NCBI GenBank assembly: GCA_964016885.1
Contig: OZ024744.1
Location: forward strand, 34,286,001 to 34,350,000
Reading direction: 5' to 3'
DNA length: 64,000 nt
Source: Eledone cirrhosa
Lineage: Eukaryota
The stretch's first letter is position 1; the number at the start of each line of letters is the position of its first letter. The translations under genes were made by a program, and so were the position numbers. This document shows positions 25,032 through 64,000 of this stretch, in pieces. A model generated the notes under the pieces. That model worked only from the letters and a program-made list of their open reading frames with translations. It made no database searches and was not told the origin of the DNA.

Positions 25032-25033
<2 letters not shown>
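24831..25033. repeat. ~200-bp fold-back palindrome in (TA)n
   Basis: ATTAGAAATGTAATTTATCGCCGTATTTT..AAAATACGGCGATAAATTACAATTCTAAT; centre near 24930. Confidence 0.85.
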
Positions 25034-25065
<32 letters not shown>

Positions 25066-30324: not shown

Positions 30325-33300
30325 GGGAACGCCCCTCAACGTCTCCAGTTTGTGCAGTAATGGCTCGAGAGTCAATACGTACAAGAGGGACGAGAGGGGA
30401 CATCCTTGGCGGACCGAGCGCATGATGTTGAACGGTTCCAAAAGGTGACTGTTCACTCTCACCACAGAGCAGATGTCGCTGTGCATGGCAGCGATCCAGC
30501 CTCTGAAGACGGGCCCAAAGCCAGCCGCCCTCAGGACTGCCGCTAGGTAACGATGGTCGACCCTATCGAAAGCTTTCGACTGATCTAAATTGATCAAGGA
30601 CCCACCCGTGCAAGGTTCCCTAGCTACCCTCTCTACGATGTATCGCATGAGGTGGAGGTTGTCGTTGATGGATCTGTCGGGAATGGCGCATGTCTGCGCC
30701 TCTTCCACCAGACCACTAACGACAAGCGCCAACCTCTTTGCTAGCACCTTGGCCAAATTTGTGTTTAGCAGAGTTATGGGCCTGAAATTATCTATGTTAT
30801 CCCCCTTGTTCAGATCCTTTCTCAGCAGTGCCACCGCTCCTTGGCTCACAGAGCTGGGAATTCTCCCGTTCTGTTGCCAGTTGCAGTAGACGTCCGCCAA
30901 GAGGCCTCCGAACAAGTCTGGCATATGTACGTAAAGTTCATAGGGCAGACCATCCAAACCAGGCGATTTACCCCTTGTGCAACCAGTCATTGCCTTCCGT
31001 ACTTCAGCGGCTGTTATCGGCTTTTCGCAACACTCCGCCTCGGTGGCCGAGAGCCGCAGCAGTCCGTCGAGGTAGACACTAAAGTCCATCCCTCGACCCA
31101 GCCCACCGCTGCCCCCGAACAGCTTAGCGAAGTGTCGCTGAAAAGCTTCACACATTTGCCCGGGATCGAGTAGTATGCGCCCGTCGTGGTCCACCAAAGA
31201 CCGGATCGTGGGTTTGTTGCCACGACTCGCCTCCGCCACTCGGGCCCATTGAACGGCTTTCGTTCCCTCGTGTCTGAGAGCACGCACCCTAGCTCTGACA
31301 ACGCAGCCTTCGTGCTTTGCATTGAAGAATTGGTCAAGGGCCAATTTCGTCGCAAGCACGTCGGTCGCAATGCCTTTGCTAAGCGCCTCGTCTAATTTTC
31401 TAACTAGTTCTTCCTCTGCTCTATCTTTCTCTATTGCTAAAGCCTTACTAAACCTAATGGATTCTATTCTAATCGCTATTTTCAGAGCAAACGACCACTT
31501 GTTGTTGACGATGGCCCCCGTCAACGCCCGCTTAACTAGTTCGCTAATCCGGTCTCTGTAGGCCTTGCGCGCTGGTAAGGACGCGTTTAGCTTCCAGTAG
31601 CCTGGTCCTCGTCTATGAAGCCTATCTAAGACACAGATCACGAATTTGTGGTCCGTGTAGCTGACTATCTTGAATTGTGGACAGCCTATGCTAGTCCTAT
31701 CTATTTTCCTACAAAATACTCTATCTAGATATGATCTGGATGACCCTATGCGATTTGTCCAAGTCCACATTGACACATTCGGGAAATCCAATCGGTACCT
31801 GTCAGACAGTTCAAAACGCCTGAGCATGTTGGAGAGGCTCTTGCACCCTCCACCCCTATCCGCTAATCCCACACAGTCCCAGCGTGCATCTAAGATCCCG
31901 TTCCAGTCGCCCACTAACACTAAAGAGCGGGACGTTCCAAGAAAGGTCTCCAGACGCCGGAAGAAATCAGGCCGCCCTGCTCCTGTCGGGACATAGACGG
32001 CCACTAGCCTGAAAGCTTGCCCGTCTCCGCTGGTCACGTCCAGCACCACCAACTTACCCTCTGGGTCCAGGAAGATGGCCCGTATGACGACTTCCAAACC
32101 TCTCCGAAAAAGCACAGCAACTCCCCCCCCCCCCCGATCCAGGACGGCTGGAAGATGCGTACACATCGTAGCCGCCGAAGATCGGTGCAAAGGCCCGTGC
32201 TTCGGAGATTCTGGTCTCGCTGATGGCCACTACATCTATGTTTAGTGACCTGAGGTCGTTGAGCAGGCGACCCTGCTTCCATGACGACCCCAAACCACGC
32301 GCATTTATGCTGCCTATTCTGAGTGAGGTCATGTTTAAAATGGAGTGGAAAAGATGGGAAAGACCACTTACCGTACTTTTCGTAGAGGAAGGATGGTTTC
32401 TCCATCCCTTTTCACTTGATCGTCTGGTGAAGGGACCGTTGAATCGTCCCTTCGGCTGGTCGTCGGCTCTTCTATGAGTATGTCCGAATATACTCTCCGG
32501 TTGAGAGTCCCCCCCCCCCCTAGGTCTCTGAAATCACCAACTGTGTTGGGGAATTTCGTTTTGTTGTTTGTGTATTGTTTCTGTGCTATTTTTACCAGTC
32601 TTATGTTCGTTGGCGTTTTGATTGGTGCGGTATTATGTAGTCGTGCTGTGAAATGTCTGTGTGTTCAATTATGTAAGTCATTAGTTTCTTGTTGTGTGTA
32701 TTTATTGCCGTGCATTTGTTTTTCTGGGGGTGGGGTGGGGTTCTGCTATTTTCTTGTCGTTGTTGCTGGGTGTGTGTGCTTTGTTGTTGTGTTTGCGATG
32801 TTGGTGCTTGTGGTGGTGGTGTTGAAGGTGTTGTTGTTGGCGGTGGGGTTGTCGCCGGTGGTGATGGTGGTGCTAGTGTGGGTGGTGATGATGTTGGTGG
32901 TGTTACTGCTGTGAGTCTCTTTGCAGTAGCCTTTACCCTTTTTTCATTTCTTTCCTCCTTTTCGAAGGCGACGATGCACTGCTTCTGCGTTTGTGCCTTC
33001 TTACGACCTTTTGCCAACCCTCTCCCACCTCACACTCCATGTCTGATTCTGTGAGGTCGGGGAGGGGTACCAGCTCCACTCTTTCACTTGTTGTTGGTGG
33101 TGTTTGCAGTGGAGTCTCTGTTGCAGCTGCATTTGGTATTACTGTTGTTGTTGTTAATACTTCCACTGCTGCTGCTGTTCTTGATTTCCGTGGCGTGGGT
33201 ATGGATGCCACGGACCTATCGTTCCTGGTTGCCGCTTGTCCTGTTGCAGGTAGCCGTGGAGCCGGTTTCGGAAGGAGGGGGGTTTTCTCCTTTCTCAGGG

Positions 33301-34686
33301 TCTTCTCGTTGCAGAAGGCCCTGAGGTGAGTCTTCAATCCACAGCGAAAGCATTTTGGGCGTTTGCCCTCAACACTTATGGGCAGTTGAGTGCCGTTATC
33401 GAAGTCTATCACATCCGGGATAGCTTCGATGCACTCCTGGTTGGTTTGGATTAACATCTCAATGGAGGTGCCGACCCAATCTTCTCTTACTTTTTTCTGT
33501 ACTTGCAGTACAGTTGTTTTGTCCTCGATTCCGACGAGGGCAGACGCGGCCAGCCAAGAAGGGGCCATCCCGGGGTGGCACGTGGGTCAGTTTGACCCTC
33601 ACAATTTTTTGCCCGCAGTAGGAGGGCACCAACACCATTTCCTCGCTCCTTAGGGGCACTAAGGATTCAGCCTTTGCCTCCTGGGGTGTGGCAAAAAGCA
33701 CGTCTACGGTGGCATATTTCTTGCCTCGGGTGATGTGCGTTTTCCGCTGCCACACAGACCCTAAGGCTTTTTGTATTTGAGCCTCTGTGGCTCTTTCAAC
33801 CCTACGGGATTTTGTGCTTACTGTACGGTACGTGACCGTACAGTGCTGTTGAGTTTCGAAAACATTTTCGGCTGCCTTGCAGATTGCTCGGTGTCCGGTT
33901 TTCGTCACCATCTTCTTCGCTTCCTCTAATTGCTTATTTGTTATGAGGATGGTTTCCAGGTTCTTTGCGATACCTGCAAACGAGATTGGTTTTTCTTTGC
34001 TGCTGTTGTTGTTGTCGTTGTCGTCAGAGCTGCTGTTACTTTTGTTGTTGCTGCAGGTACTACGACTACTGCCGCTGTTGCTGAGGTTGTTGTTGTTGTT
34101 TCTGCTGCTGCTGCTGATGTTGTTGTTGTTGCTGCTAATGCTGTTGTTGTTTATGCTGCTGCTGATGCTGTTTCGGCTGCCACTGTTGTTTTCCTTGTCA
34201 CTGTTGCTGCTGTTATTACGGCTGCTACTGCTATTATTCATGACGTCAGACGAATAAAATGGGTTTTCGTATTTACCGCACACCTTTTTCGTCGTTGTCG
34301 TCGTCGTCGTGGAGAAATGTTGCACGCTTTGCACGTGATTTTTCTTTGCTGGCGTCGCTTGCGAAAGAGAAGGGAGGGAGAGAGACAATCTTCTCTCTGC
34401 TGTAGTGACGATTGAGGAAGAAGAAGACGGAATGAGTGGGAGTGACCTATGAAAATTCTTTTTGGTAGCCATGTTTTTTTTTGTTTCAAATAAATATTGG
34501 GCATAAAACCCCAATAAGCGGTTATTTAACCCCGAAGGGCCAAATAACGGGCAGAAAGACCCCTCTCACGAGGAGGAGGGTGTTTTTGTCTACAATTTGG
34601 TTAAAGTTTTAAACAATTTACAATTGTTATAGCGGTCAAAATTTACAATACCTTACAGAGCCGAGCTTCCGTCAACCATAGCATTC
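30325..34686 (-). mobile_element. Tx1/L1-clade LINE copy A: intact 5' end, 3'-truncated, frameshifted ORF1/ORF2
   Basis: Aligns to copy E from the 5' end to the RT motif LEPLLHKLETLRGVP. 5' flank is (ATT)n. Confidence 0.93.
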
Positions 34687-34710
34687 AATAATAATAATAA
34701 TAATAATAAT

Positions 34711-36791
34711 GATTTCTTTATTAACCACAAGGGTTTACATAAAGTAGACATTAAGGACAGTGCAGGACAATACAGGACGGTACACATGGGCATTTCTGCG
34801 TGTAAAAAACAAAAACAGAGGATGTAACAAAAAATAACAATGAAAAATTCCCCAATAGGGGGGAGACTTCGGAGGGACATTTGTGGAGAAAGCCCAGTAA
34901 AAGGCCACAATGACCCTGACCACCAAGGCAAGTGCCCTCTTCCAGTTTTCCACCTTTAATTTACAGATATATACTCAGAGTAGGCCCATTCACTCGGGCC
35001 ATTCTTGCTTCTCTCACCCATCTTTCAACAAAATGTTGGGAAGAGAGCACTTCCCTCTCTACTCTGATTTTCCTTTTCAAATGAAATTTGAAAAAGTCAA
35101 TCAGAGCATCACCGAAGAGGTAAGTGCTCGTCTTCAGCCCTTTCAAACGTGTCCACCATACTATCTCTTTCGCCATGGCCACCAGACAGATAAAAACTTC
35201 CTGCCCTTCCCGGCTAAAGGAGGAGGGCGGGGCAATCCTCACGATGGACTCAGATGATAGCCGGATCCGTCCTAAACGCGACAGCAGGTGTTCGACATAA
35301 ACCCACAAGTCAGCAATTTTCGGACACTGGACGAGTGCGTGCAGGACGGTTTCGTCGCCCTGCGCGCATCTCGGACATACCCGGCTGACGGCACCTCCAT
35401 GCCTGTAGAGTTTATCCCGAACTGGCAAGGCTCCTCGGTAGCACTGCCAGGCCAGAGATTTCTGGAAGTTGTCCATAGGCCCTGGCCCGAAAGTTCTTCC
35501 GAAGAGATTGGCTAGTTGATTTTCGTCGACGCCTAGAGTTTCCCCAAGTACGTCGTCGCTCTTCCCCTCCACTAATCCTCTATAGAACGCCGAGGTGGAG
35601 TTTCCACCAATCACATTGCCCGATTGGTCGAGGGCTGTGAGCGCCTGAAGACATTCCAGTCTCCAGGCGCTCCCTCTCGGTCTTCGCTTGACCCAGGACT
35701 GCAGCTCCGTCAAGGAAACGAGCTGGGGAAATACGTGTCTAGCAAACGGCGACCACACCTGATCACCGTCGAGGAAGAGGTGGAGATGTCGTAGCCTGAG
35801 CGCGTGCATGCGCATCATCAGCCACGGCATGCCCAGCCCTCCACGTAGCGGGTGTTGACAACAGATGGACCGCCTGACCATCGGAGCGCGTCCCTTCCAC
35901 AAAAAGCGAAAGAGCAAACGCTCCAGCGCAGTCAGGCGAGGCTTAGGACAAGGTACGACGGTCAGGCGGTAGCAGATGACAGACGCGATGTACGCGTTAG
36001 CCACCTCCGCTCGACCTTTCAGGGATAGCTTCCTCTCCGCCCATTTCTGGGTGAGAGAAGCCACCCTGCTCGTCACCTCGTCCCAGTTTTTGTCCGCCTG
36101 GAGGTCCGGACCGAACCAGACCTCTAGCAATTTAACCGGTCCGTCCGTCCAGCGTCCGACGACGCTGTTGGACGGCATGGACATGCCTCTCCAGGTGCCG
36201 ATCTGCAGGCCCACTGACTTTTCCTGGTTGATCATTGCTCCTGTCACCGCTTCGTATTCTCTTAGTGTAGTACCGATCGCCTCGATGTGTTTGGCGTTCG
36301 ACACCACTACGGTGACATCGTCCGCATATGCTGACACGGATCTTCCGCATCCTAGTTCGCGCGGGACGTCCCTCGACGTCTCCAGTTTGTGCAGTAATGG
36401 CTCGAGAGTCAATACGTACAAGAGGGACGAGAGGGGACATCCTTGGCGGACCGAGCGCATGATGTTGAACGGTTCCGACAGGTGACCGTTTACTCTCACC
36501 ACAGAGCAGATGTCGCTGTGCATGGCAGCGATCCAGCCTCTGAAGACGGGCCCAAAGCCAGCCGCCCTCAGGACTGCCGCTAGGTAACGATGGTCGACCC
36601 TATCGAAAGCTTTCGACTGATCTAAATTGATCAAGGACCCACCCGTGCCAGGTTCCCTAGCTGCCCTCTCTACGATGTATCGCATGAGGTGGAGGTTGTC
36701 GTGGATGGATCTGTCATGAATGGCGTATGTCTGCGCCTCTCCCACCAGACCACCAACGACAAGCGCCAACCTCTTTGCTAGCACCTTGGCC
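34711..36791 (-). mobile_element. Tx1 copy B: 5'-truncated (RT C-half + zinc knuckle, ORF 34961-36784 open)
   Basis: LDQSKAFDRV, QGCPLS, YADD, CPRC..H...C. (AAT)n on both sides. Confidence 0.95.
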
Positions 36792-36870
<79 letters not shown>

Positions 36871-36874
36871 TACT

Positions 36875-37780
36875 GTACTGAAGGAGGGGACAGTAGGCCA
36901 GGGGATATCCAAGGAGGAAATAACATCAAGGAGGAAGAGCAGCCTTAAGGGAAAATCCCTTCATAGTACCTTCTTTGAGAAAACTGAATTTAGAGATCCA
37001 CAGACATGGAACTGGTTGAGAAGAGGAGACCTCAAAAAGGCTACAGAAGGAATGCTAATGGCTGCGCAGGAGCAGGCCCTCAAAACGAAGTGGTTGAAGC
37101 ACCATATCTACAAGGAGGAGGCTAGCCCACTGTGCAGGATCTGTGGAGAGAGAGAGGAGACTGTGGCTCACATTGTGTCCGAGTGTAAACACCTAGCCCA
37201 GACCCACTATAAGGGCTGGAGACACGATGTGATGGGCAGGGTGATCCACTGGCACCTGTGCAAAGTAAACAATCTACCACATTCTGAGAAATGGTATGAG
37301 CATAGGCCAGAGGCGGTGATGGAGAACAGTCAGGTGAAGGTGCTGTGGGATTTTAGGATACAGACGGACAAAAAACTGGAACACAATAGACCTGACCTGG
37401 TGGTTGTGGACAAAGAAAAAAGATCGTGCCTGATTGTGGATGTGGCCTGCCCGTTCGACACGAGAGTGCAAGAGAAGGAGAGGGAGAAAATTAACCGATA
37501 CCAGGACCTAAAGTGGGAGGTGAAAAGGATTTGGAACTGCCATGAAGTCAAAGTGATCCCGATTGTCATAGGCGCACTGGGGACTATCTCCAAAGGTTTC
37601 CAGGGATGGTTAAAGAAAATCGGCCCCTTCACGCTTTTTGGAACGCTTCAAAAGGCATGCTTGCTTGGAACAGCAAGAACCCTCCGATACGTCCTGAATA
37701 TCTGAGGCTGCAGGTAGTGGCTTGATATTCAATCCAACGGACTTTCCAGTTAACCAACATCAATGACTGAGATTCAAGGA
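36875..37780 (+). mobile_element. R4/Dong-type RLE LINE family A, 5'-truncated
   Basis: CRICGEREETVAHIVSEC zinc knuckle, RHD, NRPDLVV, VDVACP, IGALG, LQKACLLGT. Flanked by (AAT)n. Confidence 0.92.
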
Positions 37781-37808
37781 ATAACAATAACAATAATAAT
37801 AATAATAA

Positions 37809-40800
37809 GTAACACTTCGAATCCCAGGGTTGGGGCGGAATCACTGACAACAGAACAAATTAAAGAAAGGATCGAAAAAGTGGAGGGAGTGCATGCTCAA
37901 GATGAAACTCAAATTGAAAACAATGAGATCGTAAATGATAAAGAAATGAATGAGAATGAACTTGCCAACTTGAAGGATCAAATTATGATCGAATGGATGA
38001 AAATGAAAGAATCTGACATGGGGCAACGAGACGCCCTCCCTAAGATCCAGAACTCCAAACAGAACCAAAAGATAATACACAAGACTAACATAATTCTCAA
38101 AAATATTATAATCACAAACAAACTAAACATTACTGATTTAAATCATCTCTATTATGCATCGGCTAAAGTCACCACTCACTTATGTGGAGTGAAATTGAAA
38201 AAACAAAGGAATTCCCACAAGAAATCTACTTGGCAAGAGAACATCAATCGCCAAATAAACCTTCTCCGATCTGACATAGAAATTTTAACAAACTATAAAG
38301 TAGGTGAACATGTTAAACAAACTAAACTTAGAAAATTGAAAAGAAAGTACAGTATAAAATCAACAAGTGACATAGACATGCTGATAGAAACAATCAAGCA
38401 AAAAGTGTCGGCCAAAGCTGCTTGTATAAGGCACTTTGAAAAACGATCTAGATTCTATGAATGACAATAATATGTTCAAAAACAACCAAAGAAACCTCTA
38501 CAGAAAAATTGGTAAGTCAACAATAACTGCTAAATCAATACTACCCAAGGAGGAAGTGCAAGAATTCTGGGAAAAGATCTGGGCCGAAGAAAAAGTACAT
38601 AATATACATGCCCCATGGATAGACAGACAAATGAAAGATACAGCTCACCTTGAGGAACAAATATGGGAAAATATAACAGTTGAACAGTTGCGTTTGGCTC
38701 TTAGAAAAACCAGCCAATGGAAATCCCCAGGAAAAGACAAGATACACATTTTTTGGATAAATGCCTTCACAGAGTCTCATGAGCTGTTAGCCCAACTTTA
38801 CAATGAAATAGTTAAGGAGCCAGAAAAGATACCATCATGGCTAGTTAACGGCATTACATTCCTGCTTCCGAAGAATGATGAGACAAACAATCCCAAAAAT
38901 TACAGACCGATAACTTGCTTGACCACAATGTATAAAATGTTAACATCAGTCCTAACTGAATATACATAAGACCACCTGATAACAAATGACCTATTTCCCA
39001 TTGAGCAGAAAGGGTGTAAACGAGGCTCATATGGCTGTAAGGATCAGCTTTTGGTTAACAAAATGATACGGGAAGATTGTCATAATAGACACAAAAATCT
39101 ATCAATTGCTTGGATAGATTATAAAAAAGCATTCGATAGTTTGCCACACAGTTGGATTGAAAAATGTTTAGAGATTTTCAAAATATCTCCTGTTGTCAGG
39201 AGGTTTTTGTCATTCAGTATGAAGACATAGAAAACGACACTCCTTTTGAATAGTGAAACAAAATCACTGGAAGCTGGAGAAGTTAATATTAATTGTGGAA
39301 TTTTTCAGGGTGACTCTTTATCACCGCTTTTATTTTGCATCACACTTATACCATTAAGTAAAATGCTCAATGAAACAAAACATGGATATAAAGTCTATGA
39401 CAAAACCATTAATCACTTGTTCTACATGGATGACCTAAACTATTTGCAAAAAATGATGAACAATTGCAAGGGCTATTATCCACTGTGGAGCAGTTCAGTG
39501 ATGACATTAAAATGGAGTTTGGACTAGATAAATGCGCCAAAGCAACGTTCACCAGAGGAAAGCTGCTGAAAAGTTCAGACTTTAATCTTGATCGGGGGAA
39601 TGTGATAAGAGAACTTGATCAAGAGGAAACTTACAAATATCTAGGTGTTTGTGAAGGAGACGGAATCAAGCACTCGACAATGAGGGAAAGGATAAGGAAG
39701 GAATGTTACCGCAGAGTAAGAGCAATCTTAAGAACGGAATTGAATGCAAGGAATAGGATCGATGCCATAAACACGCTTGCCATACCAGTAGTAACCTACA
39801 GTTACAATGTCATCAACTGGTCAAGCACAGAGATCCGTAGGCTCGATACAAAAATTCGAAAATTCTTAACCATGCACAGAATGCATCACCCTAAGGCAGA
39901 TATAGATAGAATATATCTCCCTAGGAAAGAAGGAGGACGTGGGTTAATCCAGTTAGACATTGCGTTGAAAACTGCAACAATTGGATTATCTACATATCTA
40001 AGGGAATCACATGATTGGATGATCAAACTCGTTTTGAAACACGAAAGCATCAAAAGATCATACTCCATTACAAAAGATGCACAAAGATACAGTAATGGAC
40101 TACAAATTTCAGAAGTCCCATTTACTGCTGAAATGGAAAACACAGAAAAAGCAAAGCAGGTAAAAGTAACTGCAATGAAAGAACTGCTACAGAAACTGGC
40201 TAAGAAATGGCAAGAAAAGCCTCTGTATGGAAAATACCCAGAACGAGCTAACAATCCTGATGTTAACAAAACTTTAACCCATCAGTGGATGGCATCCTCT
40301 GGACTGAAATCGGAGACTGAAGGACTGATTATATCAGCACAAGATCAGTGTCTGCCAACAAAAAATTACCAAGCCAACATAATAATAAATGGATGCAGCC
40401 CATTATGCCATGTATGTAAAAAACAACCAGAGACCATTGACCATATAATTTCAATGTGCAGTCCTATAGCTCCAACCGAATACCTAAACAGGCATGACAG
40501 AGCTGCACAATACATACATTGGATAATGTGTAAGTATTTTGACCTGCCCCATCAAAAGAATTGGTGGGAGCATCAACCACCTCCCATACTTGAAAAAGAT
40601 CACATCTCAATCTTGTGGAACTTTAGCATCCAAACAGACCGAAAAATAGATGCAAATAGACCTGATATAATATTGAAGGACTTTAAAAAGAGGGTATGCC
40701 TGCTAATTGATATGTCCATTCCAATAGACAAGAATGTAACTATAAAAACATTTGAAAAATTGAGCAAGTATAAGGACCTGGAGATAGAAATTGGAAAAAT

Positions 40801-41116
40801 GTGGAAATTGAGAACTAAAACAATACCAGTGGTTGTAGGCGCTCTAGGAATGATACCTAAGGGGTCTAATGATTACTTATCGCAAATCCCAGGAAACCCG
40901 CGTATAGGAGAAATACAAAAGATAGTACTAATGGGAACTGCCCATATACTAAGGAAGATTCTGTCAATATAAGTACATCACAAGTCTAAACACTAAAGAT
41001 GCATGTGTGAGTATGTATGTTCTTTCTTGAACATGGCGGATATTGTTGTCTCTTGAGGTCACTGGTTGTGACTTGGTGATAACTCGTATGAACATAAAGC
41101 AAGATAAATGCAACTG
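37809..41116 (+). mobile_element. R4/Dong-type RLE LINE family B, 5'-truncated, disrupted ORF
   Basis: KSPGKD, NYRPITCL, IDYKKAFD, GIFQGDSLSP, FYMDDL, EGGRGL, CHVC..HIISMC, NRPDII, VVGALG. (TAA)n tail. Confidence 0.93.
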
Positions 41117-41135
41117 TAATAATAATAATAATAAT

Positions 41136-46977: not shown

Positions 46978-46995
46978 AATAATATTAATAATAAT

Positions 46996-49344: not shown

Positions 49345-49350
49345 AATAAT

Positions 49351-50111: not shown

Positions 50112-50176
<65 letters not shown>

Positions 50177-50437
50177 TTTCTTTATTAACCACAAGGGTTT
50201 ACATAAAGTAGACATTAAGGACAGTGCAGGACAATGCAGGACGGTACAAATGGGCATTTCTGCGTGTAAAAAAAACAAAAACAGAGGATGTAACAAAAAT
50301 AACAATGAAAATAACAATGAAAAATTCCCCAATAGGGGGGAGACTTCGGAGGGACATTTGTGGAGAAAGCCCAGTAAAAAGCCACAATGACCCTGACCAC
50401 CAAGGCAAGTGCCCTCTCCCAGTTTTCCACCTTTAGT

Positions 50438-53857: not shown

Positions 53858-53892
53858 GTTTAAAATAGAGTGGAAAAGATGGGAAAGACCAC

Positions 53893-55986
53893 TTACCGTA
53901 TTTTTGGTAGAGGAGGGATGGTTTTTACATCCCTTTTCACTTGATCGTCTGGTGAAGGGACCGTTGAATCGTCCCTTCGGCTGGTCGTCGGCTCTTCTAA
54001 GAGAATGTCTGAATATACTCTTCGATTAATGGTTCCTCCTAGGTCCCTGAAATCACCAACTGCGTTGGGGAATTTCGTTTTAATGTTTGTGTATTGTTTC
54101 TGTGCTATTTTTAGCAGTCTTATGTTAGTTGGCGTTTTGATTGGTGCTGGTATTATGTAGTCCTGTTGTGAAATGTCTGTGTGTTCAATTATGTAAGTCA
54201 TTAGTTTCTTGTTGTGTGTGTTTATTGCCGTGCATTTGTTTTTCTGGGGGTGGGGTGTGGTTCTGCTATTTTCTTGTCGTTGTTGCTGGGTGTGTGTGTT
54301 TTGTTGTTGTGTTTGCGATGTTGGTGCTTGTGGTGGTGGTGTTGAAGGTGTTGTTGGCGGTGGGGTTGTCGCCGGTGGTGATGGTGGTGCTGGTGTGGGT
54401 GGTGATGGTGTTGGTGGTGTTGCTGCTGTGGGTCTCTTTGCAGTAGACTTTACCCTTTTCTCATTTCTTTCCTCCCTTTTCAAAGGCGACGATGCGCTGC
54501 TTCTGCGTTTGTGCCTTCTTGAGACCTTTTGCCATCCCTCTCCCACCTCACACTCCATGTCTGATTCTGTAAGGTCGGGGAGGGGTACCAGCTCCACTCT
54601 TTCACTTGTTGTTGTTGGTGATGTTTGCACTGGAGTCTCTGTTGCAGCTGCATTTGGTATTGCTGTTGTTGTTGTTAATATTTCCACTGCTGCTGCTGTC
54701 TTTGATTTCCGTGGAGTGGGTATGGGTGCCACGGACCTATCGTTCCTGGTTGCCGCTTGTCCTGTTGCTGGTAGCCGTGGAACCGGATTCGGGAGGAGGG
54801 GGGTTTTCTCCTTTCTCAGGGTCTTCTCGTTGCAGAAGGCCCTGAGGTGAGTCTTCGATCCACAGCGAAAGCATTTCGGGCGTTTGCCCTCAACACTTAT
54901 GGGCAGTTGAGTGCCGTTATCGAAGTCTATCACATCCGGGATAGCTTCGATGCACTCCTGGTTGGTTTGGATTAGCATCTCAATGGAGGAGCCGACCCAA
55001 TCTTCTCTTACTTTTTTCTGTACTTGCAGTACAGTTGTTTTGTCCTCGATTCCGACGAGGACAGACGCGGCCAGCCAAGAAGGGGTCATTCCGGGGGGGA
55101 CGTGGGTCAGTTTGACCCTCACAATTTTTTGCCCGCAGTAGGAGGGCACCAACACCATTTCCTCGCTCCTTAGGGTCACTACTGATTGGGCCTTTGCCTC
55201 CTGGGGTGTGGCAAAAAGTACGTCTACGGTGGCGTATTTTTTGCCTCGGGTGATGTGCGTTTTCCTCTGCCACACAGACCCCAAGGCTTTTTGTATTTGG
55301 GCCTCTGTGGCTCTTTCCACCCTACGGGATTTTGTACTTACTGTACGGTACGTGACCGTACAGTGCTCTTGGGTTTCGAAAAAATTTTTCGCTGCCTTGC
55401 AGATTGCTCGGTGTCCGTTCTTTGTCACCATCTTCTTCGCTTCCTCTAATTCCTCATTTGTTATGAGGATTGTTTCCAGGTTTTTCGCAATACCTGCAAA
55501 TGAGATTGGTTTTTCTCTGCTGTTGTTGTTGTCGTCAGAGCTGCTGGTACTTTTGTTGCTGCAGGTACTACGACTACTGCCTCCGCCGCTGTTGCTGTGG
55601 TTGTTGTTGGTGTTGCTGCTGCTAATGCTGTTGTTGTTTATGCTGCTGGTGATGCTGTTGCGGCTGCTACTGTTGTTTTCATTGTCACTGTTGCTGTTGT
55701 TATTACGGCTGCTACTGCTATTATTCCTGACGTCAGACGAATGAACTGGGTTTTCGTATTTCCCGCACACCTGTTTCGTCGCTGTCGTCGTCGTCGTGGA
55801 GAAACCTTGCACGCTTTGCACGAGACTTTTCTTTTCTTTCGTCGCTTGCGAAAGAGAAGGGAGGGAGAGAGACACATTTAAAGAAGGGAGGGAGAGAGAC
55901 AATCTTCTCTCTGCTGTAGTGATGATTGAGGAAGAAGAAGACGGAATGAGTGGGAGTGACGTATGAAATTTCTTTTTGGTAGCCAT
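53893..55986 (-). CDS. Tx1 ORF1p, gag-like (697 aa from first ATG)
   Basis: Start MATKKK (AACATGG). CFRCGSKTHLRAFC zinc knuckle. S/N-rich N-terminal and P/T-rich C-terminal regions. Confidence 0.92.
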   Translation of the reverse strand: MATKKKFHTSLPLIPSSSSSIITTAERRLSLSLPSLNVSLSLPSLSQATKEKKSLVQSVQGFSTTTTTATKQVCGKYENPVHSSDVRNNSSSSRNNNSNSDNENNSSSRNSITSSINNNSISSSNTNNNHSNSGGGSSRSTCSNKSTSSSDDNNNSREKPISFAGIAKNLETILITNEELEEAKKMVTKNGHRAICKAAKNFFETQEHCTVTYRTVSTKSRRVERATEAQIQKALGSVWQRKTHITRGKKYATVDVLFATPQEAKAQSVVTLRSEEMVLVPSYCGQKIVRVKLTHVPPGMTPSWLAASVLVGIEDKTTVLQVQKKVREDWVGSSIEMLIQTNQECIEAIPDVIDFDNGTQLPISVEGKRPKCFRCGSKTHLRAFCNEKTLRKEKTPLLPNPVPRLPATGQAATRNDRSVAPIPTPRKSKTAAAVEILTTTTAIPNAAATETPVQTSPTTTSERVELVPLPDLTESDMECEVGEGWQKVSRRHKRRSSASSPLKREERNEKRVKSTAKRPTAATPPTPSPPTPAPPSPPATTPPPTTPSTPPPQAPTSQTQQQNTHTQQQRQENSRTTPHPQKNKCTAINTHNKKLMTYIIEHTDISQQDYIIPAPIKTPTNIRLLKIAQKQYTNIKTKFPNAVGDFRDLGGTINRRVYSDILLEEPTTSRRDDSTVPSPDDQVKRDVKTIPPLPKIR

Positions 55987-56200
55987 GTTTTTTTTGTTTA
56001 AAATGAAATTTTGGGTACAAAACCCCAATAACTGGTTATTTAACCCCGAAGGGCCAAATAACGGACAGAAAGACCCCTCTCACGAGGAGGAGGGTGTCTT
56101 TATCAACAATTTGGTTCAAGTTTTAAACAATTTACAATTGTTTTAACGGTTAAAAATTACTATACCTTACAGAGCCGAGCCTCCGTCAACCATGGCATTC

Positions 56201-56245
<45 letters not shown>
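56201..56245. repeat. (AAT)15 linker between copies E and F
   Basis: Perfect trinucleotide repeat. Confidence 0.95.
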
Positions 56246-56247
<2 letters not shown>

Positions 56248-56507
56248 TTTCTTTATTAACCACAAGGGTTTACATAAAGTAGACATTAAGGACAGTGCAG
56301 GACAATGCAGGACGGTACAAATGGGCATTTCTGCGTGTAAAAAAACAAAAACAGAGGATGTAACAAAAATAACAATGAAAATAACAATGAAAAATTCCCC
56401 AATAGGGGGGAGACTTCGGAGGGACATTTGTGGAGAAAGCCCAGTAAAAAGCCACAATGACCCTGACCACCAAGGCAAGTGCCCTCTCCCAGTTTTCCAC
56501 CTTTAGT

Positions 56508-59500
56508 TTACAGATATATACTCAGAGTCGGCCCATTCACTCGGGCCATTCTTGCTTCTCTCACCCATCTTTCAACAAAATGCTGGGAAGAGAGCACTTC
56601 CTTTTCTACTCTGATTTTCCTTTTCAAATGAAATTTGAAAAAGTCAATCAGAGCATCACCGAAGAGGTAAGTGCTCGTCTTCAGCCCTTTCAAACGTGTC
56701 CACCATACTATCTCTTTCGCCATGGCCACCAGACAGATAAAAACTGCCTGCCCTTCCCGGCTAAAGGAGGAGGGCGGGGCAATCCTCACGATAGACTCAG
56801 ATGATAGCTGGATCCGTCCTAAACGCGACAGCAGGTGTTCGACATAAACCCACAAGTCAGCAATTTTCGGACACTGGACGAGTGCGTGCAGGACGGTTTC
56901 GTCGCCCTGCGCGCATCTCGGACATGCCCGGCTGACGGCACCTCCATGCCTGTAGAGTTTATCCCGAACTGGCAAGGCTCCTCGGTAGCACTGCCAGGCC
57001 AGAGATTTCTGGAAGTTGTCCATAGGCCCTGGCCCGAAAGTTCTTCCGAAGAGATTGGCTAGTTGATTTTCGTCGACGCCTAGAGTTTCCCCAAGTACGT
57101 CGTCGCTCTTCCCCTCCACTAATCCTCTATAGAACGCCGAGGTGGAGTTTCCACCGATCACATTGCCCGATTGGTCGAGGGCTGTGAGCGCCTGAAGACA
57201 TTCCAGTCTCCAGGCGCTCCCTCTCGGTCTTCGCTTGACCCAGGACTGCAGCTCCGTCAAGGAAACGAGCTGGGGAAAAACGCGTCTAGCAAACGGCGAC
57301 CACACCTGATCACCGTCGAGGAAGAGGTGGAGATGTCGTAGCCTGAGCGCGTGCCTGCGCATCATCAGCCACGGCATGCCCAGCCCTCCACGTAGCGGGT
57401 GTTGACAACAGATGGACCGCCTGACCATCGGAGCACGTCCCTTCCACAAAAAGCGAAAGAGCAAACGCTCCAGCGCAGTCAGGCGAGGCTTAGGACAAGG
57501 TACGACGGTTAGGCGGTAGCAGATGACAGACGCGATGTACGCGTTAGCCACCTCCGCTCGACCTTTCAGGGATAGCTTCCTCTCCGCCCATTTCTGGGTG
57601 AGAGAAGCCACCCTGCTCGTCACCTCGTCCCAGTTTTTGTCCGTCTGGAGGTCCGGACCGAACCAGACCCCTAGCAATTTAACCGGTCCGTCCGTCCAGC
57701 GCCCGACGACGCTGTTGGACGGCATGGACCTGCCTCTCCAGGTGCCGAGCTGCAGGCCCACTGACTTTTCCTGGTTGATCATTGCTCCTGTCACCGCTTC
57801 GTATTCTCTTAGTGTAGTGCCGATCGCCTCGATGTGTTTGGCGTTCGACACCACTACGGTGACATCGTCCGCATATGCTGACACGGATCTTCCGCATCCT
57901 AGTTCGCGCGGGACTCCCCTCAACGTCTCCAGTTTGTGCAGTAATGGCTCGAGAGTCAATACGTACAAGAGGGACGAGAGGGGACATCCTTGGCGGACCG
58001 AGCGCATGATGTTGAACGGTTCCGACAGGTGACCGTTCACTCTCACCACAGAGCAGATGTCGCTGTGCATGGCAGCGATCCAGCCTCTGAAGACGGGCCC
58101 AAAGCCAGCCGCCCTCAGGACTGCCGCTAGGTAACGATGGTCGACCCTATCGAAAGCTTTCGACTGATCTAAATTGATCAAGGACCCACCCGTGCCAGGT
58201 TCCCTAGCTACCCTCTCTACGATGTATCGCATGAGGTGGAGGTTGTCGTGGATGGATCTGTCGGGAATGGCGCATGTCTGCGCCTCTCCCACCAGACCAC
58301 CAACGACAAGCGCCAACCTCTTTGCTAGCACCTTGGCCAAAATCTTAAACTCTGTGTTTAGCAGAGTTATGGGCCGGAAATTGTCTATGTTATCCCCCTT
58401 GTTCGGATCCTTTCTCAGCAGTGCCACCGCTCCTCGGCTCACAGAACTGGGAATTCTCCCGTTCTGTTGCCAGTTGCAGTAGACGTCCGCCAAGAGGCCT
58501 CCGAACAAGTCTGGCATCTGTACGTAAAGTTCATAGGGCAGACCATCCAAACCAGGCGATTTACCCCTTGTGCAGCCAGTCATTGCCTCCCGTACTTCAG
58601 CGGCTGTTATCGGCTTTTCGCAACACCTCGCCTCAGTGGCCGAGAGCTGCGGCAGCCCGTCGAGGTAGACACTAAAGTCCATCCCTCTACCCGGCCCCCC
58701 GCTGCCCCCGAACAGCTGAGCGAAGTGTCGCTGAAAAGCTTCACACATTTGCCCGGGATCGAGTAGCATGCGCCCGTCGTGGTCCACCAAAGACCGGATC
58801 GTGGCTTTGTTGCCACGACGCGCCTCCGCCACTCGGGCCCATTGAACGGCTTTCGTCCCCTCGTGTCTGAGAGCACGCACCCTAGCTCTGACAACGCAGC
58901 CTTCGTGCTTTGCATTGAAGAATTGGTCAAGGGCCAATTTCGCCGCAAGCACGTCGGTCGCAATGCCTTTGCTAAGCGCCTCGTCTAATTTTCTAACTAG
59001 TTCTCCCTCTGCTCTATTTTTCTCTATTGCTAAAGCCTTACTAAACCTAATCGATTCTATTCTAATCGCTCTTTTCAGAGCAAACCACCACTTGTTGTTG
59101 ACGATGGCCCCCGTCAACGCCCGCTTAACTAGTTCGCTAATCCGGTCTCTGTAGGCCTTGCGCGCTGGTAAGGACGCGTTTAGCTTCCAGTAGCCGGGTC
59201 CTCGTCTATGAAGCCTATCTAAGTCAAGCACACAGGTCACGAATTTGTGGTCCGTGTAGCTGACTATCTTGAATTGTGGACAGCCTATGCTAGACCTATC
59301 TATTTCCCTACAAAATACTCTATCTAGATATGATCTGGATGACCCTATGCGGTTTGTCCAAGTCCACATTGGCACATTCGGGAAATCCAATCGGTACCTG
59401 TCAGACAGTTCAAAACGCCTGAGCAGGTTGGTGAGGCTCTTGCACCCTCCACCCCTATCCGCTAATCCCACACAGTCCCAGCGTGCATCTAAGATCCCGT

Positions 59501-59927
59501 TCCAGTCGCCCACTAACACTAAAGAGCGGGACGTTCCAAGAAAGGTCTCCAGACGCCGGAAGAAATCAGGCCGCCCTGCTCCTGTCGGGGCATAGACGGC
59601 CACTAGCCTGAAAGCTTGCCCGTCTCCGCTGGTCACGTCCAGCACCACCAGCTTACCCTCTGGGTCCAGGAAGATGGCCCGTATGGCGAGATCCAAACCT
59701 CTCCGAAAAAGTACAGCAACTCCTCCACCGGATCCAGGACGGCTGGGAGATGCGTACACATCGTAGCCGCCGAAGATCGGTGCGAAGGCCCGTGCTTCGG
59801 AGATTCTGGTCTCGCTGATGGCCACTACATCTATGTTTAGTGACCTGAGGTCGTTGAGCAGGTGACCCTGCTTCCATGACGACCCCAAGCCACGCGCATT
59901 TATGCTGCCTATTCTGAGTGAGGTCAT
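56508..59927 (-). CDS. Tx1 ORF2p (1139 aa)
   Basis: Same as the copy E protein except GLPQLS vs GLPRLS. Confidence 0.96.
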   Translation of the reverse strand: MTSLRIGSINARGLGSSWKQGHLLNDLRSLNIDVVAISETRISEARAFAPIFGGYDVYASPSRPGSGGGVAVLFRRGLDLAIRAIFLDPEGKLVVLDVTSGDGQAFRLVAVYAPTGAGRPDFFRRLETFLGTSRSLVLVGDWNGILDARWDCVGLADRGGGCKSLTNLLRRFELSDRYRLDFPNVPMWTWTNRIGSSRSYLDRVFCREIDRSSIGCPQFKIVSYTDHKFVTCVLDLDRLHRRGPGYWKLNASLPARKAYRDRISELVKRALTGAIVNNKWWFALKRAIRIESIRFSKALAIEKNRAEGELVRKLDEALSKGIATDVLAAKLALDQFFNAKHEGCVVRARVRALRHEGTKAVQWARVAEARRGNKATIRSLVDHDGRMLLDPGQMCEAFQRHFAQLFGGSGGPGRGMDFSVYLDGLPQLSATEARCCEKPITAAEVREAMTGCTRGKSPGLDGLPYELYVQMPDLFGGLLADVYCNWQQNGRIPSSVSRGAVALLRKDPNKGDNIDNFRPITLLNTEFKILAKVLAKRLALVVGGLVGEAQTCAIPDRSIHDNLHLMRYIVERVAREPGTGGSLINLDQSKAFDRVDHRYLAAVLRAAGFGPVFRGWIAAMHSDICSVVRVNGHLSEPFNIMRSVRQGCPLSSLLYVLTLEPLLHKLETLRGVPRELGCGRSVSAYADDVTVVVSNAKHIEAIGTTLREYEAVTGAMINQEKSVGLQLGTWRGRSMPSNSVVGRWTDGPVKLLGVWFGPDLQTDKNWDEVTSRVASLTQKWAERKLSLKGRAEVANAYIASVICYRLTVVPCPKPRLTALERLLFRFLWKGRAPMVRRSICCQHPLRGGLGMPWLMMRRHALRLRHLHLFLDGDQVWSPFARRVFPQLVSLTELQSWVKRRPRGSAWRLECLQALTALDQSGNVIGGNSTSAFYRGLVEGKSDDVLGETLGVDENQLANLFGRTFGPGPMDNFQKSLAWQCYRGALPVRDKLYRHGGAVSRACPRCAQGDETVLHALVQCPKIADLWVYVEHLLSRLGRIQLSSESIVRIAPPSSFSREGQAVFICLVAMAKEIVWWTRLKGLKTSTYLFGDALIDFFKFHLKRKIRVEKEVLSSQHFVERWVREARMARVNGPTLSIYL

Positions 59928-59962
59928 GTTTAAAATAGAGTGGAAAAGATGGGAAAGACCAC

Positions 59963-62056
59963 TTACCGTATTTTTGGTAGAGGAGGGATGGTTTTTACAT
60001 CCCTTTTCACTTGATCGTCTGGTGAAGGGACCGTTGAATCGTCCCTTCGGCTGGTCGTCGGCTCTTCTAAGAGAATGTCTGAATATACTCTTCGATTAAT
60101 GGTTCCTCCTAGGTCCCTGAAATCACCAACTGCGTTGGGGAATTTCGTTTTAATGTTTGTGTATTGTTTCTGTGCTATTTTTAGCAGTCTTATGTTAGTT
60201 GGCGTTTTGATTGGTGCTGGTATTATGTAGTCCTGTTGTGAAATGTCTGTGTGTTCAATTATGTAAGTCATTAGTTTCTTGTTGTGTGTGTTTATTGCCG
60301 TGCATTTGTTTTTCTGGGGGTGGGGTGTGGTTCTGCTATTTTCTTGTCGTTGTTGCTGGGTGTGTGTGTTTTGTTGTTGTGTTTGCGATGTTGGTGCTTG
60401 TGGTGGTGGTGTTGAAGGTGTTGTTGGCGGTGGGGTTGTCGCCGGTGGTGATGGTGGTGCTGGTGTGGGTGGTGATGGTGTTGGTGGTGTTGCTGCTGTG
60501 GGTCTCTTTGCAGTAGACTTTACCCTTTTCTCATTTCTTTCCTCCCTTTTCAAAGGCGACGATGCGCTGCTTCTGCGTTTGTGCCTTCTTGAGACCTTTT
60601 GCCATCCCTCTCCCACCTCACACTCCATGTCTGATTCTGTAAGGTCGGGGAGGGGTACCAGCTCCACTCTTTCACTTGTTGTTGTTGGTGATGTTTGCAC
60701 TGGAGTCTCTGTTGCAGCTGCATTTGGTATTGCTGTTGTTGTTGTTAATATTTCCACTGCTGCTGCTGTCTTTGATTTCCGTGGAGTGGGTATGGGTGCC
60801 ACGGACCTATCGTTCCTGGTTGCCGCTTGTCCTGTTGCTGGTAGCCGTGGAACCGGATTCGGGAGGAGGGGGGTTTTCTCCTTTCTCAGGGTCTTCTCGT
60901 TGCAGAAGGCCCTGAGGTGAGTCTTCGATCCACAGCGAAAGCATTTCGGGCGTTTGCCCTCAACACTTATGGGCAGTTGAGTGCCGTTATCGAAGTCTAT
61001 CACATCCGGGATAGCTTCGATGCACTCCTGGTTGGTTTGGATTAGCATCTCAATGGAGGAGCCGACCCAATCTTCTCTTACTTTTTTCTGTACTTGCAGT
61101 ACAGTTGTTTTGTCCTCGATTCCGACGAGGACAGACGCGGCCAGCCAAGAAGGGGTCATTCCGGGGGGGACGTGGGTCAGTTTGACCCTCACAATTTTTT
61201 GCCCGCAGTAGGAGGGCACCAACACCATTTCCTCGCTCCTTAGGGTCACTACTGATTGGGCCTTTGCCTCCTGGGGTGTGGCAAAAAGTACGTCTACGGT
61301 GGCGTATTTTTTGCCTCGGGTGATGTGCGTTTTCCTCTGCCACACAGACCCCAAGGCTTTTTGTATTTGGGCCTCTGTGGCTCTTTCCACCCTACGGGAT
61401 TTTGTACTTACTGTACGGTACGTGACCGTACAGTGCTCTTGGGTTTCGAAAAAATTTTTCGCTGCCTTGCAGATTGCTCGGTGTCCGTTCTTTGTCACCA
61501 TCTTCTTCGCTTCCTCTAATTCCTCATTTGTTATGAGGATTGTTTCCAGGTTTTTCGCAATACCTGCAAATGAGATTGGTTTTTCTCTGCTGTTGTTGTT
61601 GTCGTCAGAGCTGCTGGTACTTTTGTTGCTGCAGGTACTACGACTACTGCCTCCGCCGCTGTTGCTGTGGTTGTTGTTGGTGTTGCTGCTGCTAATGCTG
61701 TTGTTGTTTATGCTGCTGGTGATGCTGTTGCGGCTGCTACTGTTGTTTTCATTGTCACTGTTGCTGTTGTTATTACGGCTGCTACTGCTATTATTCCTGA
61801 CGTCAGACGAATGAACTGGGTTTTCGTATTTCCCGCACACCTGTTTCGTCGCTGTCGTCGTCGTCGTGGAGAAACCTTGCACGCTTTGCACGAGACTTTT
61901 CTTTTCTTTCGTCGCTTGCGAAAGAGAAGGGAGGGAGAGAGACACATTTAAAGAAGGGAGGGAGAGAGACAATCTTCTCTCTGCTGTAGTGATGATTGAG
62001 GAAGAAGAAGACGGAATGAGTGGGAGTGACGTATGAAATTTCTTTTTGGTAGCCAT
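59963..62056 (-). CDS. Tx1 ORF1p (697 aa)
   Basis: Translation matches copy E ORF1. Confidence 0.92.
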   Translation of the reverse strand: MATKKKFHTSLPLIPSSSSSIITTAERRLSLSLPSLNVSLSLPSLSQATKEKKSLVQSVQGFSTTTTTATKQVCGKYENPVHSSDVRNNSSSSRNNNSNSDNENNSSSRNSITSSINNNSISSSNTNNNHSNSGGGSSRSTCSNKSTSSSDDNNNSREKPISFAGIAKNLETILITNEELEEAKKMVTKNGHRAICKAAKNFFETQEHCTVTYRTVSTKSRRVERATEAQIQKALGSVWQRKTHITRGKKYATVDVLFATPQEAKAQSVVTLRSEEMVLVPSYCGQKIVRVKLTHVPPGMTPSWLAASVLVGIEDKTTVLQVQKKVREDWVGSSIEMLIQTNQECIEAIPDVIDFDNGTQLPISVEGKRPKCFRCGSKTHLRAFCNEKTLRKEKTPLLPNPVPRLPATGQAATRNDRSVAPIPTPRKSKTAAAVEILTTTTAIPNAAATETPVQTSPTTTSERVELVPLPDLTESDMECEVGEGWQKVSRRHKRRSSASSPLKREERNEKRVKSTAKRPTAATPPTPSPPTPAPPSPPATTPPPTTPSTPPPQAPTSQTQQQNTHTQQQRQENSRTTPHPQKNKCTAINTHNKKLMTYIIEHTDISQQDYIIPAPIKTPTNIRLLKIAQKQYTNIKTKFPNAVGDFRDLGGTINRRVYSDILLEEPTTSRRDDSTVPSPDDQVKRDVKTIPPLPKIR

Positions 62057-62270
62057 GTTTTTTTTGTTTAAAATGAAATTTTGGGTACAAAACCCCAATA
62101 ACTGGTTATTTAACCCCGAAGGGCCAAATAACGGACAGAAAGACCCCTCTCACGAGGAGGAGGGTGTCTTTATCAACAATTTGGTTCAAGTTTTAAACAA
62201 TTTACAATTGTTTTAACGGTTAAAAATTACTATACCTTACAGAGCCGAGCCTCCGTCAACCATGGCATTC

Positions 62271-62318
<48 letters not shown>

Positions 62319-63421
62319 TAAAAAGAAATGGATAGGAAGACTAGGAAGCTATTGACTATCTACAACATGTTCCACAAGAGGAGTGATGTCGATAGACTCT
62401 ACTTAAGGAGATCTGAAGGTGGAAGAGGTCTTATCGGCATAGAGGACTGTGTTCAGATGGAGAAAAACAACCTACACAAATACGTGACCTATAGTAAGGA
62501 GCCAATGCTCAGAACAGTACTGAAGGAGGGGACAGTAGGCCAGGGGATGTCCAAGGAGGAAATAACATCAAGGAGGAAGAGCAGCCTTAAGGGAAAATCC
62601 CTTCATAGTACCTTCTTTGAGAAAACTGAATTTAGAGATCCACAGACATGGAACTGGTTGAGAAGAGGAGACCTCAAAAAGGCTACAGAAGGAATGCTAA
62701 TGGCTGCGCAGGAGCAGGCCCTCAAAACGAAGTGGTTGAAGCACCATATCTACAAGGAGGAGGCTAGCCCACTGTGCAGGATCTGTGGAGAGAGAGAGGA
62801 GACTGTGGCTCACATTGTGTCCGAGTGTAAACACCTAGCCCAGACCCACTATAAGGGCTGGAGACACGATGTGATGGGCAGGGTGATCCACTGGCACCTG
62901 TGCAAAGTAAACAATTTACCACATTCTGAGAAATGGTATGAGCATAGGCCAGAGGCGGTGATGGAGAACAATCAGGTGAAGGTGCTGTGGGATTTTAGGA
63001 TACAGACGGACAAAAAACTGGAACACAATAGACCTGACCTGGTGGTTGTGGACAAAGAAAAAAGATCGTGTCTGATTGTGGATGTGGCCTGCCCGTTCGA
63101 CACGAGAGTGCAAGAGAAGGAGAGGGAGAAAATTAACCGATACCAGGACCTAAAGTGGGAGGTGAAAAGGATTTGGAACTGCCATGAAGTCAAAGTGATC
63201 CCGATTGTCATAGGCGCACTGGGGACTATCTCCAAAAGTTTCCAGGGATGGTTAAAGAAAATCGGCCCCTTCACGCTTTTTGGAACGCTTCAAAAGGCAT
63301 GCTTGCTTGGAACAGCAAGAACCCTCCGATACGTCCTGAATATCTGAGGCTGCAGGTAGTGGCTTGATATTCAATCCAACGGACTTTCCAGTTAACCAAC
63401 ATCAATGACTGAGATTCAAGG
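62319..63421 (+). mobile_element. R4/Dong family A, 5'-truncated, young (ORF 62328-63347 open)
   Basis: RSEGGRGL, CRIC..H...C, RPD and GALG motifs. Near-identical to 36875-37780. (AAT)16 upstream. Confidence 0.93.
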
Positions 63422-63445
63422 AATAACAACAATAATAATAATAAT

Positions 63446-63486
63446 GATTTCATTTATTAGCCACAAGGGCCGACATGTAGGGGACA
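63446..63486 (-). mobile_element. 41-bp Tx1-type 3' stub inside (AAT)n
   Basis: Exact reverse complement of 18606-18646. Confidence 0.75.
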
Positions 63487-63505
63487 ATAATAATAATAAT
63501 AATAA

Positions 63506-64000
63506 CACAAGATCAGTGTCTGCCAACAAAAAATTACCAAGCCAACATAATAAAAAATGGGTGCAGCCCATTATGCCGTGTATGCAAAAAACAACCAGAG
63601 ACCATTGACCATATAATTTCAATGTGCAGTCCTATAGCTCCAACCGAATACCTAAGCAGGCATGACAGAGCTGCACAATACATACATTGGATAATGTGTA
63701 AGCATTTTGACCTGCCCCATCAAAAGAATTGGTGGGAGCATCAACCACCTCCCATACTTGAAAAAGATCACATCTCAATCTTGTGGAACTTTAGCATCCA
63801 AACAGACCGAAAAATAGATGCAAATAGACCTGATATAATATTGAAGAACTTTCAAAAGAGGGTATGCCTGCTAATTGATATGTCTGTTCCAATAGACAAG
63901 AATGTATCTATAAAAACATTTGAAAAATTGAGCAAGTATAAGGACCTGGAGATAGAAATTGGAAAAATGTGGAAATTGAGAACTAAAACAATACCAGTGG
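63506..64000 (+). mobile_element. R4/Dong family B, 5'-truncated, runs off window
   Basis: Aligns to ~40338-40832; preceded by (AAT)n. Confidence 0.92.

Follow-up and report, generated by a model that had tools for sequence, protein, structure and literature searches.

Several long interspersed elements (LINEs) are described from microsatellites and other tandem repeats. Among those with an apurinic/apyrimidinic-type endonuclease (APE), Tx1 families target (TC)n (Kibi), (TTC)n (Koshi) and, in crocodilians, (TTCC)n or (TTTC)n (PMC4494074, PMC3812793), and the choice of microsatellites by APE-type LINEs is described as not well understood (PMC3812793). Dong, of the R4 clade, has been reported from Bombyx mori, Anopheles gambiae, Biomphalaria glabrata and an ostracod (PMC7998251, PMC3812793, PMC3774820). 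Its target in sense is (TAA)n in insects, molluscs and cnidarians (PMC7998251, PMC3774820), and TAA is assigned to it in a published list of microsatellite targets (PMC3812793). In B. mori, TRAS1 and SART1 insert in opposite directions into one tandem repeat, with the endonuclease (EN) setting the site, so antiparallel sharing of one repeat is not in itself unprecedented (PMC7265360). Here, we analyzed a 64,000-nucleotide stretch of the Eledone cirrhosa genome (contig OZ024744.1, positions 34,286,001 to 34,350,000), hereafter the window, in which a Tx1-like family (hereafter Tx) and Dong-like elements with a restriction-like endonuclease (RLE) are nested in AAT/ATT arrays. The explanation that we favor, and hold to be fairly likely, is that Tx, reading (ATT)n, and Dong, reading (AAT)n, insert into shared arrays by priming from different strands, and that each insertion splits and partly duplicates the array, giving rise to nests.

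Like Kibi, Koshi and the crocodilian families, Tx is an APE LINE of the L1/Tx1 group with a reverse transcriptase (RT), placed in a microsatellite with the repeat on both sides. Unlike them, Tx and its relatives occupy (ATT)n or (ATCT)n rather than pyrimidine-only repeats, the host is an invertebrate, and the target is shared with an RLE element (PMC4494074, PMC3812793). The RLE copies have the same single open reading frame (ORF) and the same target as Dong, from which nothing essential separates them, and two families are present here (PMC7998251, PMC3774820). TRAS1 and SART1 are likewise two families in one repeat in opposite directions, but both are R1-clade APE elements with poly(A) tails in telomeric TTAGG (PMC7265360), whereas here an APE and an RLE element with repeat tails meet in an interstitial microsatellite. 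What appears to be new is the antiparallel sharing of a microsatellite by unrelated nucleases from different clades, together with a probable retargeting event and a probable partner for a short interspersed element (SINE).

In Octopus vulgaris, L1-Tx1 and Dong-R4 repeats are abundant and recently active, with 13 and 5 families, respectively (PMC13282606). The consulted portions of the two reports of this activity in octopus include no target analysis (PMC13282606, PMC8967140), and in the first of them the main text and one supplement do not use the word 'target' and describe neither microsatellite specificity nor nesting. Consensus entries for the families studied here probably exist in the O. 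vulgaris annotation. No ATT- or ATCT-specific Tx1 was found in the literature searched, which did not include repeat databases and does not establish absence from print; the portions consulted of PMC4640811, PMC4758252, PMC3747384, PMC4824008 and PMC5753468 contain neither an ATT-specific Tx1 nor a partner for the SINE.

The nest in the window and its two kinds of LINE

Self-comparison together with ORF and domain scans resolved 12 LINE insertions at 30326-64000. As the first-pass annotation of this sequence had claimed, six Tx1-like copies and a stub lie on the minus strand and five Dong-like RLE copies on the plus strand. The RLE copies belong to two families with 37-41% amino acid identity to each other. 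From left to right, the nest contains:

30326-34686, minus strand: Tx1-like copy A, 5' end intact, 1.7 kb missing at the 3' end, 93% identical to copy E
34687-34710: (AAT)8, with the 5' end of A on one side and the 3' end of B on the other
34711-36794, minus strand: Tx1-like copy B, 5'-truncated, 98% identical to E
36792-36869: (AAT)26 at a head-to-head junction between two truncated elements
36873-37806, plus strand: Dong-like family 1 copy (element 36873-37781), 5'-truncated, (AAC/AAT)n tail
37807-41134, plus strand: Dong-like family 2 copy (element 37807-41117), 5'-truncated, (AAT)6 tail
41135-46977, minus strand: Tx1-like copy C, older subfamily, about 83% identical to E, ORFs broken
46999-49344, minus strand: Tx1-like copy D, 5'-truncated, 93% identical to E, merely TAATAAT on the 5' side
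49349-50174, plus strand: Dong-like family 1 copy (element 49349-50112), 5'-truncated, 88% identity, followed by (AAT)21
50175-56200, minus strand: Tx1-like copy E, full length (6,026 bp), ORF1 and ORF2 open
56246-62270, minus strand: Tx1-like copy F, full length, ORF1 and ORF2 open, four differences from E
62320-63445, plus strand: Dong-like family 1 copy (element 62320-63423), 5'-truncated and tailed, (AAT)16 on the 5' side
63446-63485, minus strand: 40-bp stub from the 3' end of another Tx subfamily with ATT tails, flanked by AAT left and right
63506-64000, plus strand: Dong-like family 2 copy, 5'-truncated, extending beyond the window

AAT is present at every inner junction, as had been stated, but two of these are weak: junction 49345 has only about two units (TAATAAT) and the repeat at 46978 is imperfect and interrupted. 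The left end of copy A (30326) is a deletion boundary and has no AAT. To the right of the window, the nest runs about 5.5 kb further with unchanged polarity (locus L353), through the rest of the Dong copy, a second Dong and a minus-strand Tx relative.

Tx has the two-ORF layout of Tx1, with an APE endonuclease, an RT and a C-terminal zinc motif in ORF2. Copy E provides the reference:

53893-55986, minus strand: ORF1, 697 amino acids, low-complexity ends, one CCHC knuckle
50438-53857, minus strand: ORF2, 1,139 amino acids, with APE endonuclease, RT and zf-RVT
53258-53284, minus strand: endonuclease beta-hairpin, about residues 192-200, with Ile194 at the tip
50175-50200, minus strand: 3' end, with a 4-bp stem, a CUUGU loop and AATAAA, then (ATT)n

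The modeled Tx endonuclease (pLDDT 90) has L1 EN as its best match (TM 0.81-0.82) and retains the catalytic residues. The closest named match of ORF2 is an Argonauta protein (73%), and identity to Tx1-named proteins is about 30%. In a quick RT tree of 50 rows, from which Repbase reference families were absent, Tx, the Argonauta protein and unnamed relatives at 43% identity formed a lineage of their own (97), which met the Tx1-named proteins at an SH-aLRT of 80. From these comparisons, membership in Tx1 is probable, though weakly supported. Tx1 ORF1 proteins are marked by RNA-binding domains and a CCHC knuckle; the Tx ORF1 has one CCHC by eye, no Pfam match, and ESM features at 0.91 to ZCCHC3-RBD/CCHC clusters. 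A second 5' type (L066, element 1640-7500 of the sense strand, and eight more sampled copies) has another 5' UTR and ORF1 and shares the ORF2 of E from position 2260 of E onward, an apparent ORF1 swap. The relatives at about 43% identity make up a large sister lineage from metagenome assemblies; most relatives at the 55 loci mapped in such assemblies were 21-33% identical, and they offered no informative flanks. Single-sequence folds of Tx 3' ends were no better than shuffles (z -1.1 to +0.6). Contigs of four sequencing runs yielded neither an empty allele nor an end of the RNA, and in one of the loose ends the Tx 3' end is joined to (AAT)8.

The Dong-like label rests on anatomy and target. 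A 1,141-amino acid protein (L160) is encoded by a single ORF, with RT and zinc motifs found by Pfam and an RLE motif after the RT by eye. The single ORF with RT, CCHC and a PD-(D/E)xK endonuclease, together with a (TAA)n target in sense, is what characterizes R4/Dong. The proteins had no Pfam match for a Myb/SANT-like N-terminal domain and no N-terminal zinc finger by eye, and the best 120 of 821 protein matches included neither a named Dong nor informative names. A 5' HDV-like ribozyme is a further feature of R4/Dong; the window contains no Dong 5' end, and an Rfam scan of it was blank.

Flanks, polarity and empty sites across the genome

In the 3.0-Gb assembly, exact 30-mers of the 3' ends occurred 3,430 (Tx), 4,063 (Dong family 1) and 3,610 (Dong family 2) times. 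The first-pass annotation had proposed genome-wide 5' flanks as the measure of enrichment and orientation, and both were found: a 26-mer from the Tx 5' end had 2,369 exact occurrences, of which 2,291 (96.7%) stood immediately after (ATT)3 and none after (AAT)3 (one phase tested). By way of background, a 9-nt ATT-phase run precedes 547 of 799,280 positions (0.068%) in 400 kb of contig C1, sampled as 40 evenly spaced stretches of 10 kb, and preference for a target has been taken to begin above 20% of flanks (PMC4494074). ATT was also upstream of all of the best 30 full-length Tx matches across contigs. An ordered C1 sample of 70 Tx 3' ends was classified by eye; it was taken from the first 77 on this contig, of which seven were omitted as members of tandem arrays. 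The 5' end was reached in 47 copies (38 of E type, nine of the second type), all with ATT there, once interrupted; this full-length share is itself unusually high. On the 3' side, at least three perfect ATT units followed 59 of the 70 copies and at least one followed 66, with poly(A) in none.

Could the 5' repeat belong to the element RNA, through upstream read-through or template jumping, rather than to the target? The fixed phase of the 5' junction in full-length copies (ATT, then G) would suit such an origin, as would the 10 of the best 30 full-length matches that follow another Tx 3' end. However, ATT runs also adjoin 10 of 22 truncated Tx copies, whose internal breakpoints are random, the flanks carry locus-specific interruptions, two unrelated 5' ends have the same flank, and empty sites already hold the array. 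We consider an RNA origin of the 5' repeat hardly credible. The annotation had noted the repeat beside randomly truncated copies in the window (B, D and the stub); in the C1 sample this holds for those 10 copies and fails for the other 12, and copy D in the window has only TAATAAT. Among the 12, two lie in TTC or ACT, six abut an antisense Dong with no repeat in between and four adjoin other DNA. Truncation in Dong gave a similar picture: AAT was on the 5' side of 14 of 14 family 1 copies truncated within 1.5 kb (by eye) and of 12 of 16 such family 2 copies, with two more in AAG.

The opposite polarity of Tx and Dong, first noted in the window, extends beyond it. On C1 up to 81.9 Mb, pairs were counted among 90 Tx ends and 85 and 100 Dong ends, all from young exact-match copies of this one contig. 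Tx and Dong lay no more than 12 kb apart in 47 pairs, against a shifted-null mean of 6.1 (maximum 24), and 45 of the 47 were antiparallel, whereas 34 of 36 Dong 1-Dong 2 pairs and 15 of 15 Tx-Tx pairs were parallel. The bias vanished, to about half, beyond 30 kb. Multi-element nests held 163 of the 275 ends, compared with 20.8 under a uniform null that takes no account of regional density. Polarity was pure in 27 of 30 mixed nests (11.3 expected).

Near-random insertion, with nests left by selection that spares junk and by recombination between flanking repeats, could draw on the uneven density of elements along C1 and on copies E and F, which differ at 4 of 6,026 sites over their full length and by at least 20 from the other young copies compared. 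Indeed, E and F are likely a local duplicate. However, such insertion cannot yield 96.7% exact ATT|G junctions or a fixed polarity that falls to about half past 30 kb, and in 10 of 10 comparable tandem Tx pairs the neighbor was not the closest relative (last 1.2 kb). With E/F excepted, these pairs led us to reject the view that nests stem mainly from tandem duplication, and near-random insertion as a whole is largely refuted and very improbable.

Empty sites show that the array comes first. They were found through an RTE-like LINE of the window:

14961-18860, plus strand: RTE-like LINE, with a short interrupted ATT array in its 3' region
18604-18646, plus strand: Tx stub inserted in that array, of the same stub subfamily as 63446-63485, with (ATT)n in sense

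Copies of this LINE have in common a 3' region in which GT, AT, ATT, T-rich and ATGT repeats form a fixed series. Among the best 30 copies, 25 had an empty array (3-9 units), four a filled one, and one had no array. The fillings were the window's Tx stub and a truncated Tx relative, both in sense, an antisense Dong, and a sense copy, with a duplication, of an abundant SINE that we take to be of tRNA type; all four are in the predicted orientation. The AAT/ATT array thus precedes insertion, and the targeting claimed for the window is upheld.

At single loci, insertion also enlarges the target. The window's filled RTE-like array has 6+16 units, compared with seven in its most similar empty copy, a gain to which slippage could have contributed. 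At C1:57.08-57.10 Mb, three different Tx copies occupy one array (95.9% identity between copies 1 and 3 at full length, 97.5% between copies 2 and 3 over 1.2 kb), and a 42-nt interrupted flank upstream of the first is repeated after the first and the second. We read this locus as serial insertion with target duplication, the alternative being unequal exchange between filled alleles. The idea that each tail regenerates the target therefore stands in part: the target grows on insertion, as the duplicated spacer and the filled and empty sites indicate, but the role of the tail seems small. Since three off-array Tx copies have a tail of one ATT, a long RNA tail appears to be minor, and new repeat seems to come more from target duplication and slippage. 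Twin priming, in which one break is extended by Tx and Dong, was rejected: an antisense Dong also adjoins 24 of 47 full-length copies (by eye), and array deletion suffices for the six of 12 truncated copies that abut one, which makes twin priming needless.

Target choice by nuclease or by RNA

In target-primed reverse transcription, the (AAT)n strand provides the primer for an element that reads (ATT)n, and the (ATT)n strand does so for an element that reads (AAT)n. Starting from an array already in place, the Tx endonuclease would favor the TpA step of the (AAT)n strand, with its beta-hairpin helping to choose the repeat. The RNA end, consisting of the CUUGU stem-loop and a few read-through AUU past AATAAA, would then anneal to the nicked primer. 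AATAAA sits 6 nt ahead of the Tx tail, but inserted copies lack poly(A), and this points to priming within the read-through AUU; because the RNA end would anneal there, no poly(A) would be copied. The RLE, as known for Dong, would prime from the (ATT)n strand. Duplication of the target repeat on insertion was seen at single loci, and SINE tails and slippage may seed and lengthen new arrays.

Alternatively, a loose TpA nickase might cut widely while annealing of the RNA tail alone set both specificity and polarity, AUU pairing with the (AAT)n strand and AUCU with the (AGAT)n strand. Annealing helps SART1 priming (PMC7265360), mismatches are tolerated at junctions, where short microhomology reaches into the element end (L101, L111), and the bottom strands of ATT and ATCT contain the same ATA core. 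Target duplications of the SINE, moreover, begin at a bare ATTAT outside arrays (10 of 10, 9-18 bp, among 25 copies with a 5' end); this fits a loose nuclease and counts against a strict one, although the partnership of SINE and Tx is itself a matter of inference. Against this stand L074, L064 and L040, in which the tail matches only 3 nt on the 3' side. L074 and L064 lie at the 3' edge of an array, with one ATT on the 3' side and 23 and 12, respectively, on the 5' side, out of reach of RNA pairing. These two loci suggest that recognition of DNA, not pairing alone, selects arrays and that the RNA contributes little tail. The hairpin, conserved in ATT families and different in ATCT ones, also speaks against annealing alone, which we judge unlikely.

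Relatives of Tx have a second target. Two Tx-like families met in random stretches (L282, L269) end in (ATCT)n, and at 20 loci each (ATCT)n is often at their truncation points too, though less strictly than ATT in the ATT families. The 14 ATCT rows of a quick RT tree (34 rows, 241 columns) fell into one clade (99) within the ATT families (join 93), so the ATCT preference is likely derived from ATT. The endonuclease hairpin aligns to the L1 loop and is identical among ATT families whose sequences around it are only 67% alike; in 12 of 12 ATCT segments the tip differs from Ile (Ser in 11, Gly in one). A hairpin matters in the endonucleases of TRAS1 and R1Bm (PMC1919474), and endonuclease swaps retarget TRAS/SART (PMC7265360). 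Conservation of the hairpin suggests that the APE domain may have a sequence specificity of its own. Beside ATCT copies, no C-terminus resembling that of Dong turned up. At L338 and L349 (within L336-L351), the ATCT families have copies whose ORF2 alignments are unbroken.

Several observations, besides the bare SINE sites, weigh against antiparallel targeting of shared arrays by the two nucleases. The 12 truncated Tx copies that lack a 5' ATT run are joined by 11 of 70 Tx 3' ends with fewer than three perfect ATT, and the 3' ends of L074 and L064 pass directly into TTC or other DNA. The AAT specificity that the annotation had proposed is not strict, in view of these insertions in TTC, in ACT and at array boundaries. 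A Dong family 1 copy (L158) is surrounded by non-repeat DNA and apparently has a duplication of about 80 bp, three of the 30 mixed nests are impure, and a same-strand Dong stands beside the nest at L079 and L108. The hairpin change, being on one branch, is a single event and thus a lead. We nevertheless retain the antiparallel reading of shared arrays as the better explanation. Young intact copies of sister families that differ in target (ATT or ATCT), a single candidate residue and empty sites make the contributions of nuclease and RNA annealing separable. If the reading is true, two targets join the Tx1 list, and unrelated nucleases divide one repeat by strand.

The SINE and other features of the window

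The SINE had 48 3' ends in the 400 kb of C1 stretches, which extrapolates to some 10^5 copies; 38 of the 48 have an ATT tail and none an AAT tail. Over the last 25 nt, the SINE can be aligned with Tx 3' ends around a 4-bp stem and CUUGU loop, and both sides have changed in three of the four pairs (six hand-picked rows). This resemblance makes the Tx lineage a likely mobilizer of the SINE. A Tx1 family has been proposed as SINE mobilizer in crocodilians as well, where SINEU and Tx1-Mar share a target (PMC4494074); unlike that pair, the SINE here shares about 25 nt with a compensated stem-loop and has a looser target. The random stretches contained 16 arrays of at least five units (about one per 25 kb), nine of which touch a recognized element end, and in six of these nine it is a SINE 3' end.

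A wider scenario is tentative, and we put it forward as possible rather than likely: an undescribed octopod Tx1-like radiation on microsatellites that took ATT opposite Dong, later ATCT with the change at the hairpin tip, and the SINE through the CUUGU stem-loop. ATT arrays seeded by SINE tails would be expanded by the two LINE clades, a three-party feedback making much of the long AAT repeat and hotspots of transposable elements. If true, it would suggest how LINE hotspots and long AAT arrays arise in octopods and which LINE is the likely partner of the SINE.

Other repeats were noted in passing. A further family with a different stem-loop and (ATT)n (L018, L020, L103, L120, L269) serves as a Tx landing site. 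Rfam and ARAGORN scans of the window returned no matches. Outside the nest, the window also contains:

63-6055 and 6614-6822: 74-bp satellite, about 83 copies
7155-7871, plus strand: old Tx-like RT fragment, followed by a short ATCT run
9604-10413, minus strand: fragment of a hAT transposase dimerization domain
21622-25034: nested inverted repeats and palindromes with (AT)n at the borders, resembling a miniature inverted-repeat transposable element
26591-26745 and 28771-28979: copies of the SINE

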